Shown here: piece by piece, positions 17,121-19,205 of the stretch
Layout of the letters: each line of letters begins with the position of its first letter
Position numbering within the stretch: position 1 is the first letter of the stretch
NCBI GenBank assembly: GCA_964351815.1
Contig: CAYGPH010000003.1
Coordinates: 1-54,252, forward strand
Origin: an uncultured Verrucomicrobiales bacterium
GTDB taxonomy: Bacteria > Pseudomonadota > Alphaproteobacteria > Paracaedibacterales > CAITNM01
Reading direction: 5' to 3'
Length of the DNA: 54,252 nucleotides
The notes under the pieces: generated by a model
The model's database searches: none
What the model saw: only the letters and a program-made list of their open reading frames with translations
Told to the model about the DNA's origin: nothing
Made by a program: the position numbers and the translations under genes

Positions 17121-19205
17121 TTATTGCCTTGGCATTGGAAGCGCAACTAATGGTTGTTTAGGGTATTGCCCATAAAGCCATTCATTACGTTTACCTTTTG
17201 CGTTATCTTCACGCATTTGAATTCCTAATGCATAATCGTCTTCCGGTGCAACGTACTTCATATAATGATTACCGGTGTGTTTTAAGAAAATAGTTTTAGC
17301 TGTAGGGCTGGTTAAAACAACTGTGGTTAAATATTCATTTTCATTATCTTTCGGCTGTGGAGAGAAAACTAATGTTTGGTAAATACCATCATCTTTTGTA
17401 TTTGCATGTATTTCTAAAGCAGTAGGATTCACACTATAGGTAATAATATTCATGTTGTTTGCAAAGGCATATGCTATGGCATAGGCGTTGGCGGATTCAA
17501 AGAAACCATTATTTCCAAGACTATTTTTAAAATTTTGTGATAAGAATTGTGAAATATCTTTTTTGGAAATTTTTCCAATGTCATACAAGAATTGGCTTCG
17601 AAGCACGTCTAGTGATTCTTTTTTTTGAATCTTGGCTGCATTTAATGCTTGAAACTTGGGGGCTATTTTATGTAGTGCATTTTTTGATTGCCCAGTTGGA
17701 TCAACAAAATTTATTATGAAATCAAAAAGATCATAAAGATCATTTATATATTCATTATATTTTTCCTCATAATTTCTATAACTTTGAATTTTAGTTTTAA
17801 TAGATCTTAATGTTGGTCTATCAAGAATTTGATCTGCTATTCTTGCAAGGCTTCGAAAAGCAACATCTTTTTCTTTCTTTGTGCCATTATTGATTGCTTT
17901 TAAAGTTTTGTCATTAATTTTTATATCTAGAATTTTTTTACTTATAAGTTTTTCAAGTATTATGCCGATTTGCTTAAAAGCCTTTTGTTCTTTAGAAAAA
18001 CCATCGTAACCTTCTGGGAGGTGCTCTAAAGGCGTTTCTGGTGCCTGAAATTCTTGTTTTTTTATTTTTTCTTTAAATCTATTCATGCTGTAAATTATAG
18101 CGTCTTGAATCTTTAAATGTAGAAGTACAAATTGTTGAAATTCTTTTGTTTTTTGTGTAATTTCATCATCTAGCTGTTGCTCCATTAAGGCTTTTTTTAA
18201 GTTGTATTCCTGCAATTTACTTTTTTCATTTTCATCATTACCTTCTTCCACAGCTTCAACAGCGTTAACAAAATCCGCTTGTTTCATTTTTATGTCTTTT
18301 GCAAAATATTTATACAAACCCTCAAAAAAAGGATTGTTTTCATTAGCTACTAACGCATCAGAAACCTTGAAACGGGTATTATTTTCTGCAATGCCACTGC
18401 TTCTTCCTTCGCAGGCAATGAATTGACTAAAAAAACCACACTGGCCATCGCCTACGGAATCGTAAAGGGCTAATTCATTTTCTGCTTCAAGATTAAATTT
18501 TTCCCTAAGTTCTTGGGGAATAGCAGAAATATTTTTTTTAATTTTTCTGCTTGATTGTATCTTGGCGTCAATAAAGCCTTTTTCAAATGCATAAATTTGA
18601 CCTAGTTTTTTGTTTTTAAACTCATTTAGCAATAAAGTTAAATACTGATGCAGCTCGTCATTAATAACCATATAGGTAAGCATTAATAGCTCTTGCTGAT
18701 CTTGCACCACCAAATTTCTGATATCAAGCAGGTTGCCATCTTTTCTGTAAAGACTAAACTGACTTGTGGTAAAAAAATGCTTACGCAAATCATCTACGGT
18801 AGATTTTGGGTTAAACAAGTATTCCTGTGCAGCCACTGATAATATCCACAAGGTTGTTAAGTGTAGGCGCTGGCTATAACCAATTACTTGGGCTTTGTTT
18901 AGTTTACTTAAGAAATCATAGGCAAAGCGTGGGGTTTTGAATTGTCCAACACCATTGCTTGCGTTAAAAGCATAATAGGCTTCTAGTTCCAAAAATGCTT
19001 TCACAATGCCTTTTTTTTCATCCTCTGTTGGAAAAGCTGCGGGGCTTGCAAGCATAATAGATTCAGTAATTTTCCTTGCTTCAATATCAGCATTATCATT
19101 GTAAGCCATAGCTTTAAAGGTGTTTATTTTGCCTTCTAGCTGCTGTGAAAAGCTTTCCCCTGCTGCAAGGGAAAATATAAACAAACATAAAGTAATTAAA
19201 CGCAC
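17121..19205 (-). CDS. Secreted OTU-like cysteine protease (candidate deubiquitinase) with a very large insert in the catalytic domain
   Basis: 694 aa with a signal-like N-terminus. Cys box VGDGQCGFF (Cys256, codon 18438-18440). Further motifs GFFESANAYAIAYAFANNMNIITY and His box HTGNHYMKY (His647, codon 17265-17267). Confidence 0.6.
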   Translation of the reverse strand: MRLITLCLFIFSLAAGESFSQQLEGKINTFKAMAYNDNADIEARKITESIMLASPAAFPTEDEKKGIVKAFLELEAYYAFNASNGVGQFKTPRFAYDFLSKLNKAQVIGYSQRLHLTTLWILSVAAQEYLFNPKSTVDDLRKHFFTTSQFSLYRKDGNLLDIRNLVVQDQQELLMLTYMVINDELHQYLTLLLNEFKNKKLGQIYAFEKGFIDAKIQSSRKIKKNISAIPQELREKFNLEAENELALYDSVGDGQCGFFSQFIACEGRSSGIAENNTRFKVSDALVANENNPFFEGLYKYFAKDIKMKQADFVNAVEAVEEGNDENEKSKLQEYNLKKALMEQQLDDEITQKTKEFQQFVLLHLKIQDAIIYSMNRFKEKIKKQEFQAPETPLEHLPEGYDGFSKEQKAFKQIGIILEKLISKKILDIKINDKTLKAINNGTKKEKDVAFRSLARIADQILDRPTLRSIKTKIQSYRNYEEKYNEYINDLYDLFDFIINFVDPTGQSKNALHKIAPKFQALNAAKIQKKESLDVLRSQFLYDIGKISKKDISQFLSQNFKNSLGNNGFFESANAYAIAYAFANNMNIITYSVNPTALEIHANTKDDGIYQTLVFSPQPKDNENEYLTTVVLTSPTAKTIFLKHTGNHYMKYVAPEDDYALGIQMREDNAKGKRNEWLYGQYPKQPLVALPMPRQ

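Follow-up and report, generated by a model that had tools for sequence, protein, structure and literature searches.

The open reading frame at 17121..19205 on the minus strand of the window, the 54,252-nucleotide stretch of DNA that we analyzed, most likely encodes a highly divergent OTU-like protein, one of an exported family restricted to the Holosporales. On balance we favor the view that the gene specifies an exported three-module OTU-type cysteine protease, likely acting on host ubiquitin conjugates. The ORF encodes 694 aa plus a stop codon, starts with GTG and, like its neighbors described below, was first delineated in an initial annotation made from the sequence; all motifs quoted there were found again where it had placed them. 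These are the Cys box VGDGQCGFFSQF (residues 251-262, 18420-18455; Cys256 codon TGT at 18438-18440), the motif GFFESANAYAIAYAFANNMNIITY (GFFESANAY..NNMNIITY; residues 567-590, 17436-17507) and the His box FLKHTGNHYMKY (residues 640-651, 17253-17288; His647 codon CAT at 17265-17267), all on the minus strand, as are the features that follow. In an independent assembly of the same locus the gene call begins at Met33, leaving the start codon ambiguous; the GTG start is favored because homologs align across residues 21-32 and all have a hydrophobic segment at the N-terminus.

No other part of the protein is as hydrophobic as its N-terminus, MRLITLCLFIFSLAAGES. Residues 1-18 (19152..19205) were called as a Sec-type signal peptide from the hydropathy peak, inspection and family conservation, with the layout MR-LITLCLFIFSLAA-G|ES: a positive n-region (M-R), a 13-residue hydrophobic core and a small A-A-G before E-S. 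The n-region, hydrophobic core and small-residue cleavage site together point to a Sec-exported protein. What had been described as a signal-peptide-like start is, by hydropathy and alignment, a feature of the family: an N-terminal hydrophobic segment is present in 21/23 members, and the two exceptions resemble start-truncated gene calls. A lipoprotein reading was ruled out, as Cys7 is too near the N-terminus and the family has no consistent lipobox.

The signal peptide is followed by an all-helical domain of ~215 aa (residues 19-235, 18501..19151; delimited by alignment, pLDDT ~85-95), the region best shared with relatives (mean identity 34% vs 25-27% in the OTU lobes). Its invariant residues include E63, E75, R93, D97, F98, S123, Q127, E128, N132, S135 and D139, and it has no match in Pfam, NCBIfam or PDB. 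This domain went unremarked in the initial annotation.

Homologs of the protein number ~25-30, with 25-35% identity, and all occur in Holosporales-like alphaproteobacterial MAGs (Finniella, Odyssella). An exhaustive HMMER scan returned 16 of them; a word-indexed homolog search returned the query itself only, and nothing with the core profile. The family is small, undescribed and confined to relatives of protist endosymbionts. No rRNA is present in the window; judging by the genomes that share the family, the DNA seems to come from a Holosporales-like endosymbiont of protist cytoplasm. The window copy is the most divergent member, with core identity of 25-27% vs 41-52% among the others. Between genomes in which TssF is 75-81% identical, TsaD 78% and an MFS protein 66%, the family protein is 41-48% identical, and tandem duplications of the gene occur among relatives; such fast divergence and tandem duplication are typical of host-interaction genes.

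C-terminal to the helical domain lies an OTU-like core in two parts. The first (residues 236-324, 18234..18500) holds a strand, the Cys256-bearing Cys loop and the initial helices of the lobe; the second (residues 545-672, 17190..17573) holds a helix, a six-stranded sheet and a C-terminal helix, and is followed by a tail (residues 673-694, 17124..17189; pLDDT <50) ending in a Y-P motif that the alignment shows to be common to relatives. All 23 non-redundant sequences, which share ~25% core identity with the window protein, keep Cys256 and His647, so the motifs are more than chance. This bears out the initial annotation, which had placed the Cys before the His in the canonical OTU order and had named a lack of conservation in orthologs as evidence against an OTU assignment. 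In the first part the invariant residues are S250, G254, C256, G257, S260 and R278, and D253 is found in 21/23; GDGxCG is present in 21/23 (G-D-G-Q-C256-G in the window protein), with a Pro eight residues past the Cys in the family alignment. In the second part, where the model places strands across 585-652, N584, N586, H647 and K650 are invariant, and His647 opens the model strand 647-652, followed by Y648. H-Y/W-D/N/E occurs in 22/23 family sequences. The canonical OTU arrangement is C...H-aromatic-D/N/E (PMC7396840), and the family fits it both in Cys/His order and in H-Y/W-D/N/E.

The window copy departs from its relatives at two otherwise conserved positions. The initial annotation had asked whether an acidic third residue joins Cys256 and His647; the canonical position for it (H-aromatic-D/N/E), two residues past His647, is D/N/E in 22/23 sequences and Met in the window copy alone (Met649 codon at 17259-17261). 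Position 579 is Trp in 22/23 and Tyr in the window copy alone. Since Met649 replaces the third triad residue, the window copy would be a Cys-His dyad enzyme, with reduced or altered activity if active. One could go further and suppose an OTU-fold family in which the window copy is a dead or repurposed pseudoenzyme, perhaps binding ubiquitin or a host protein, that was retained after relocation from the ancestral locus. Both substitutions would fit, as would its standing as the most divergent member, its place between sucB and maeB rather than upstream of tssF and its local GC of 30-34% vs ~37% around. We consider this unlikely: the 694-codon ORF is intact and keeps Cys256, His647, S250, G254, G257, S260, R278, N584, N586 and K650; D253, which precedes the Cys as in A20-type OTUs, is still available; and mutating the acidic residue of bacterial and human OTUs can cost all of the activity, none of it or anything between (PMC7396840).

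Profile searches against the OTU family, proposed in the initial annotation as a check on its assignment, were negative throughout (Pfam, NCBIfam, PDB HMM searches, and hhalign at 2-4%). PF02338 gave no match at E<=10 in Pfam searches with the full protein, pieces of it and an insert-deleted construct, and none at E<=1 with 13 family members; no OTU match was obtained for the window protein in NCBIfam. Phmmer and hmmsearch against PDB found no OTU chain and nothing significant with the protein, the insert-deleted construct, a full-family profile or a core profile. Hits to DUF4411, DarP and YjgA (Pfam, NCBIfam and PADLOC; whole protein, four pieces and insert-deleted construct) were sub-threshold and rejected as noise. 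Using hhalign, the probability was 2.0% against OTUB1, with only the His box aligned, and 3.7% against CCHFV vOTU, with only the Cys box aligned.

Structure prediction followed by structure search, the second check proposed, came out in favor of the assignment. AlphaFold models were built on 12-13 sequences. The full-length model, in which long helices dominate, has no match in PDB at E<=1e-3, with OTUB chains among its best weak structural matches. For a core-only model the insert was removed and full-length homologs were aligned to the core construct of the window protein; this template-free model has a pTM of 0.69 and a pLDDT of 65-73. Comparison of the core-only model with PDB (Foldseek, 350,542 chains) returned OTU deubiquitinases as the best 50/50 matches (best E 2.3e-4, probability 0.99-1.0, TM-scores 0.2-0.4, RMSD ~10 A), comprising Cezanne, A20, OTUD1/3/5, OTUB1/2, TRABID, OTULIN, Otu2, wMelOTU and nairovirus vOTUs. 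Matches in BFVD include an OTU domain-containing protein, ubiquitinyl hydrolase 1 and an ovarian tumor-like cysteine protease. The predicted structure thus supports an OTU fold, with a helical lobe and a central beta-sheet, for the window protein. As all profile tests failed and the core model retrieves OTUs only, this reading rests on predicted structure and not on sequence; of the "divergent bacterial OTU enzyme" first proposed, the OTU-like core is seen in the model and the sequence-profile link is not.

The negative profile tests could also mean that the protein has no OTU kinship at all, the DGxC and HY motifs having arisen by convergence or chance in an unrelated alpha/beta domain or another clan CA protease, and the fold being an artefact of a shallow alignment. 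The models do draw on only 12-13 sequences, the Cys256 segment (residues 252-270) has pLDDT <50 and is coil with no helix in both models, whereas the catalytic Cys of OTUs begins an alpha-helix, and TM-scores reach only 0.2-0.4. We nevertheless regard this as very improbable, given that a template-free model has OTUs for all of its best 50 PDB matches, at probabilities up to 1.0, that a second library yields named OTU proteins and that hhalign picks out exactly the His box of OTUB1 and the Cys box of vOTU. Motif order, invariance and secondary structure also fit an OTU, with a strand before the Cys loop, the His starting a strand and D/N/E two residues later.

The two parts of the OTU-like core are separated by a variable, Lys-rich helical insert (residues 325-544, 17574..18233), delimited by model secondary structure and length variation. 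In the model, long helices run outward (325-383) and back (506-542) with a helical tip between them. The corresponding segment is 159-353 aa in relatives, and identity to them here is only 14%. Residues 301-560 contain 15% K and 8% E and are predicted helical, as the initial annotation had it when it described a Lys/Glu-rich, probably helical insert. Its figure of ~390 inserted residues was overstated, 391 being the Cys-to-His spacing; the extra helical segment beyond an ordinary OTU helical lobe is ~220 aa (~325-544), or ~260-270 aa when set against the usual 50-60 aa lobe. The distance from Cys256 to the first sheet strand, a segment that is helical in the model, is 328 aa (285-467 aa across the family). 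Its claim that the insert exceeds the usual size holds even by comparison with the helical lobe of Lot enzymes, which is 178-210 aa (PMC7690952).

The gene is flanked by sucB (TIGR01347, 537 bits, above cut-off) and a maeB-type gene whose malic enzyme product includes a PTA domain, and has no paralog in the window by tblastn or family HMM, both as first annotated. Relatives lack the sucB/maeB synteny, ruling out a conserved metabolic-operon link, and a plasmid or phage origin was ruled out by tblastn, which gave no match. A promoter/terminator scan gave counts at or below shuffled expectation. An F-box/LRR protein is encoded 14 kb from the OTU-like gene, and two further LRR proteins are encoded in the window; these F-box and LRR proteins suggest a host-directed context.

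Among relatives, at 13/16 genome loci and 6/7 metagenome loci, the gene precedes tssF-tssG by 70-90 nt and shares their strand, with vgrG(DUF2345)-ywqK 5 kb upstream. The relatives adjoin tssF-tssG and show neither fusion to nor pairing with vgrG, hcp or PAAR, the arrangements by which a type VI cargo effector would be recognized. Classical T6SS cargo is loaded from the cytoplasm, normally without a Sec signal, and a Sec signal peptide delivers a protein to the periplasm only. No type II secretion system was found, and these points count against a protein that reaches host ubiquitin. In place of a host-directed deubiquitinase, it might be a periplasmic envelope enzyme or accessory, possibly for the non-standard Holosporales T6SS; as a papain-like hydrolase, for example, it could remodel peptidoglycan or process an envelope protein for apparatus assembly. 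The family-wide signal peptide, the frequent tssF-tssG and vgrG neighborhood and the description of the Holosporales T6SS as being without recognizable standard components (PMC11909080) speak for such a role. We assign it a small probability for several reasons. The best 50 structural matches are all OTU and include no NlpC/P60, CHAP or other cell-wall cysteine hydrolase, though many are in PDB. No T6SS gene lies near the window copy, and in L009 and L011, as in the window, the family gene has no linkage to T6SS genes. The region in relatives is broadly collinear with interspersed housekeeping genes (tsaD, lepB, MFS, ksgA, pepP), so the tssF adjacency may be inherited gene order and not functional coupling. 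Finally, evolution much faster than that of TssF/TssG, together with tandem duplication, is unusual for a structural part.

To place the OTU-like family among known systems, we compared it with characterized bacterial and eukaryotic deubiquitinases. The best structural matches of the core-only model are A20/Cezanne-type OTUs (5lrv_A, E 2.3e-4; 5lrw_C; 5lrx_A), at sequence identity to the window protein of 12-13% and TM-scores of 0.26-0.35. Their OTU domains are large, with additional helices, and an acidic residue precedes the Cys, where the family has D253 in 21/23 sequences. The Legionella Lot-class enzymes LotA, LotB/Ceg23 and LotC/Lem27 are bacterial OTU-fold enzymes, from an intracellular bacterium of protists, with a lobe of 178-210 aa, shorter than the 328 aa of the window protein and the 285-467 aa across its family. 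They are Dot/Icm (type IVB) substrates without Sec signals, whereas the present family is alphaproteobacterial, carries Sec signal peptides and has a further conserved domain at the N-terminus; no Lot chain appeared in the PDB sequence searches or among the best 50 structural matches. The order C...H-aromatic-D/N/E that is common to the family is also that of wMelOTU, described with RickOTU, ChlaOTU, BurkOTU and EschOTU (Schubert et al. 2020, PMC7396840), and wMelOTU (6w9r) is among the structural matches of the core-only model (E 7.6e-3). These bacterial OTUs likewise occur in obligate intracellular Alphaproteobacteria. They were found by an OTU sequence profile and match Pfam motifs, whereas the window family falls under every threshold; and unlike the window family they are compact domains with predicted type III/IV signals, no Sec signal and no giant insert.

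Membership that is visible by predicted structure alone has a precedent in EmcB/CoxDUB of Legionellales, which have no discernible OTU sequence identity, were recognized by AlphaFold and structure comparison (wMelOTU, OTUD3) and then proved to be biochemically active DUBs (PMC12501173). In EmcB-type domains, which are small and Dot/Icm-translocated, a circular permutation puts His before Cys, whereas the window family has the canonical order, split by an insertion. A parallel in export is Burkholderia TssM, the deubiquitinase of a cytosol-dweller, which is encoded by a gene linked to a T6SS cluster, exported by Sec and type II secretion and thought to deubiquitinate the bacterial surface (PMC10719079). 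It shares the Sec signal and T6SS linkage seen in relatives of the window protein, but has a USP fold, not OTU, and no homology to the window family, and there is the further difference that no type II system was identified here.

For the exported OTU-type protease that we favor, we propose the following mode of action. The cleavable Sec signal peptide would carry the protein out of the bacterial cytoplasm, and its passage across the outer membrane would follow. The ~215-residue helical N-terminal domain would serve as a targeting or substrate-binding module. The C-terminal 460 residues are predicted to adopt an OTU-type papain-like fold, with Cys256 as the putative nucleophile and His647, on a beta-strand, as the putative general base. 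In known OTUs the helical lobe is the S1 ubiquitin-binding site; here the lobe, enlarged by a ~220-residue antiparallel helical stalk, would select chain or substrate. By analogy with every characterized OTU, the chemistry is most likely hydrolysis of ubiquitin or ubiquitin-like conjugates, presumably as an isopeptidase. As the organism appears to live in protist cytoplasm, the likely substrates are ubiquitin conjugates of the host on or close to the bacterial surface, and sequence and model together make the protein a plausible tool for tampering with host ubiquitin.

We know of no characterized Holosporales effector. A 2025 Holosporales review names the type VI system as the likely host interface and never mentions ubiquitin. 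A fast-evolving, exported OTU-like family, together with an F-box/LRR protein, offers a concrete hypothesis for how a symbiont may handle host ubiquitin. Tentatively, and with distinctly less assurance than the protease assignment itself, we suggest that the family is a new OTU subclass of Holosporales-type protist endosymbionts, defined by Sec export, a novel N-terminal domain, the longest OTU helical-lobe insertion known and an ancestral tssF-tssG coupling. Its members would strip host ubiquitin at the bacterial surface, possibly also from non-protein substrates such as lipopolysaccharide, guarding the cytoplasm-dwelling symbiont from ubiquitin-dependent autophagy in protists. If the family is OTU, the known range of OTU architecture would grow to take in inserts as much as double the Lot lobe in length, an additional N-terminal domain and a Sec signal, and the family would be another case where membership shows through structure prediction alone. 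The window copy would then be a natural variant without the third triad residue, useful for learning how dispensable that residue is.

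The OTU-like protein is encoded by a single, intact ORF of 694 codons with a GTG start (17121-19205, minus strand). The Cys-box motif VGDGQCGFFSQF (residues 251-262; Cys256 codon 18438-18440), the motif GFFESANAYAIAYAFANNMNIITY (residues 567-590) and the His-box motif FLKHTGNHYMKY (residues 640-651; His647 codon 17265-17267), all read from the minus strand, lie where the initial annotation had placed them. The protein has 3 cysteines in total. Its most hydrophobic stretch is the N-terminus, in agreement with the signal-peptide-like start proposed earlier, and a Sec-type signal peptide is predicted in every full-length family member. 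The flanking genes are, as previously named, sucB (TIGR01347 equivalog, 537 bits vs a cut-off of 379) and maeB, whose malic enzyme product also has a phosphotransacetylase domain; a transketolase gene comes after maeB. No paralog was found within the window, again as claimed. GC content at the gene is 30-34%, vs ~37% nearby. An independent assembly (L017, a 10.6-kb Logan ERR3534985 contig) carries the same tkt-maeB genes and a copy of the OTU-like gene that runs off the contig. In that assembly the gene is called from the Met33 position, by which the signal peptide would be lost; alignment across the family speaks for the GTG start.

A word-indexed homolog search with the protein returned no match beyond the protein itself, and its housekeeping neighbours are likewise singletons at 90% identity. 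Scanning 1.84 billion representatives exhaustively with HMMER recovered 16 relatives (13 at E < 1e-30), mostly 680-840 aa long and 30-38% identical over matched stretches. Judged by these matches the protein is not an orphan, but its relatives are all distant. Contig scans located the family gene at 16 loci on genome contigs and 7 on metagenome contigs, with Candidatus Finniella, Candidatus Odyssella and unclassified alphaproteobacterial MAGs as named carriers. Since Finniella and Odyssella live as endosymbionts in the cytoplasm of amoebae and other protists (PMC11909080), we infer a Holosporales-like endosymbiont as the source of the window, which contains no rRNA genes. Among the HMMER matches is a more distant member (P0019, 773 aa), which shows the family to be broader than its tssF-linked clade. 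Its N-terminal part is 250 residues longer, its Cys box lacks D-G (G-H-M-N-Q-C-G-F-F-S, with QCGFFS common to the window copy) and its His box reads G-G-H-Y-E-K-L.

The motifs and signal peptide noted initially stand; what had been missed is an all-helical N-terminal domain (residues ~19-235; 18501-19151, minus strand), modelled confidently (pLDDT about 85-95). It is the region best matched between the window copy and its relatives (34% identity), exceeding the protease core, and includes numerous polar residues that are invariant (E63, E75, R93, D97, Q127, E128, N132, S135, D139). The domain has no match in Pfam, NCBIfam or the PDB, and might serve as a second site for catalysis or binding. 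Among the 23 non-redundant family sequences, both proposed catalytic residues, Cys256 and His647, are invariant. So are S250, G254, G257, S260 and R278 in the Cys-box region, where D253 is kept in 21/23, and N584, N586 and K650 in the region after the insert, which comprises one helix and a six-stranded sheet. The family consensus in this region is T-V-I-L-T-S-P-T-A-K-N-x-F-L-x-K-x-P-x-H-Y-D-K-F. Following the Cys box, residues 271-283 have the family consensus G-I-x-E-G-N-G-R-Y-K-I-L-R in alignments A1 and A2, including the invariant R278; the window copy reads G-I-A-E-N-N-T-R. Apart from the missing His, the consensus resembles the central part of the Fic motif (HPFx[D/E]GNGRxxR), probably by coincidence.

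The proposal of a divergent bacterial OTU enzyme was not borne out by any sequence-profile test. The OTU family PF02338 matched neither the protein, its parts or an insert-deleted construct, nor any of 13 relatives; an NCBIfam scan of the protein and PDB searches by single sequence, family profile and core-only profile returned nothing. Using OTUB1 and CCHFV vOTU sequences that had been checked against the PDB, hhalign gave the core profile 2.0% probability against human OTUB1 and 3.7% against vOTU. In OTUB1 the aligned segment was solely its His box (SEPKVYLLYRPGHYDILY, paired with TAKNVFLxKSPxHYDKFI), and in vOTU solely its Cys box.

Support for the proposal came from the predicted structure of the core. 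A full-length AlphaFold model (13 sequences, pLDDT 72.9, pTM 0.67) had no significant match in the PDB; its best weak matches include rice and nematode OTUB chains. We then modelled a core construct (residues 215-324 and 545-672) to which the full-length relatives had been aligned (pLDDT 65, pTM 0.69). OTU deubiquitinases occupied 50/50 top PDB positions for this model (best E 2.3e-4, probabilities 0.99-1.0), namely Cezanne, A20, OTUD5, OTUD3, OTUD1, rice OTUB, Wolbachia wMelOTU, TRABID, OTUB1/2, OTULIN, yeast Otu2 and nairovirus vOTUs. Its BFVD matches include entries annotated as OTU domain-containing protein, as ubiquitinyl hydrolase 1 or as ovarian tumor-like cysteine protease, together with nairovirus and tenuivirus L proteins. 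The TM-scores of the structural matches are low (0.2-0.4), and both models show the Cys loop and the expected Cys helix as coil of low confidence. Weighing the negative profile tests against the uniform OTU matches of the core model, we consider it very unlikely that the family has no true OTU relationship.

In the model, the variable insert (residues 325-544) forms two long antiparallel helices (325-383, 506-542) with a helical tip. Its length in relatives is 159-353 aa, with only 14% identity to the window copy. Helical lobes measure 50-60 aa in ordinary OTUs, 110-120 aa in otubains and 178-210 aa in LotA, LotB and LotC (PMC7690952). The Cys and the first sheet strand are 328 aa apart in the window copy and 285-467 aa apart across the family, and by this comparison the ~390 inserted residues reported earlier are the Cys-His spacing; a large helical insert remains, with a true excess of about 220-270 residues. 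To our knowledge this is the largest excess for any OTU-type lobe.

The usual OTU triad, C...H-aromatic-D/N/E (PMC7396840), is kept in 22/23 family sequences (D in 18, N in 3, E in 1). The window copy, the most divergent member overall, alone has H647-Y648-M649, and alone has Tyr at the conserved Trp579. When the acidic residue is mutated, OTUs from bacteria and humans show complete, intermediate or no loss of activity (PMC7396840), so that the window copy may remain functional as an enzyme with a Cys-His dyad, perhaps with help from D253, or else may be a pseudoenzyme. We regard a pseudoenzyme in this particular genome as unlikely.

At 13/16 genome loci and 6/7 metagenome loci of relatives (L001-L008, L010, L012-L014, L016, L018-L023; e.g. 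L007, 5857-11167), the family gene is followed on the same strand, after 70-90 nt, by tssF (PF05947, E 4e-159) and tssG (PF06996). These loci hold one to three tandem family copies (three in L004), with short and long paralog pairs in L001, L016, L018, L019 and L023. Upstream are genes for an MFS transporter, tsaD, a patatin-like phospholipase, lepB, a MORN/YwqK protein and a DUF2345 (VgrG C-terminal) fragment, the phospholipase and vgrG(DUF2345)-ywqK(MORN) being a few kb away; ksgA and pepP lie downstream. Isolated [tssG-tssF] and [ywqK-vgrG] pairs are known traits of these genomes, and the available portion of that account makes no mention of the gene beside tssF (PMC8163844). The window copy and those of L009 and L011 do not adjoin T6SS genes, and the 54-kb window contains neither tssF nor tssG. 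Between lineages, the family protein is 41-48% identical vs 75-81% for TssF, 78% for TsaD and 66% for MFS, and on these comparisons it evolves much faster than its neighbours.

On the reading with the most support, the protein would leave the cytoplasm by Sec export and act as an OTU-type cysteine isopeptidase, with the expanded helical lobe and N-terminal domain setting substrate choice and host ubiquitin or ubiquitin-like conjugates as target; we put this whole chain at slightly better than even. Topology is its weak link, because Sec export reaches the periplasm only, T6SS cargo is normally cytoplasmic and no type II secretion system was found. The window's only hints of an outer-membrane export route are a 260-aa protein (25411-26193, plus strand) that weakly matches the N-terminal end of type II pseudopilin GspG, below the threshold (E 2e-4, 21 bits vs a cut-off of 89), and a TolC-like outer-membrane efflux protein (29506-30861, minus strand). 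Burkholderia TssM, from a cytosol-dwelling bacterium, is a precedent for a Sec/T2SS-exported deubiquitinase encoded beside T6SS genes (PMC10719079). A periplasmic envelope or T6SS accessory enzyme is an alternative that we consider improbable.

The family is not a new kind of system, since bacterial OTU deubiquitinases, some with enlarged helical lobes, are already known. What sets it apart from these is that a Sec signal, a new N-terminal domain and a much larger, variable insert occur together with tandem expansion next to T6SS genes, and that it escapes the OTU sequence profile. A literature search of incomplete coverage, which thus does not prove the family undescribed, found nothing linking Holosporales or Paracaedibacter to deubiquitinases.

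Other genes in the window may touch on host interaction. Five ORFs have no Pfam family (538 aa, 41536-43152, plus; 470 aa, 49930-51342, plus; 185 aa, 51628-52185, plus; 157 aa, 39244-39717, minus; 164 aa, 13939-14433, plus), nor an NCBIfam family for those scanned; several sit where the GC content of the window is lowest (31-33%). These ORFs may be additional lineage-specific or host-interaction genes. LRR proteins are typical of protist endosymbionts and pathogens, and the three in the window, one with an F-box, fit a eukaryote-associated lifestyle: an LRR_5 protein (484 aa, 31992-33446, minus), an LRR_8 protein (517 aa, 52473-54026, plus; seven matched stretches, E 6e-85) and a 563-aa protein (33522-35213, minus) with an F-box at residues 25-56 followed by BspA-type LRRs. 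Its F-box matches (PF12937, E 1.3e-7; PF00646, E 8.4e-6) both exceed gathering scores, and it looks like a mimic of a eukaryote-like SCF ubiquitin-ligase adaptor. With this gene and the OTU-like gene 14 kb apart in the same window, the organism may both add and remove host ubiquitin.
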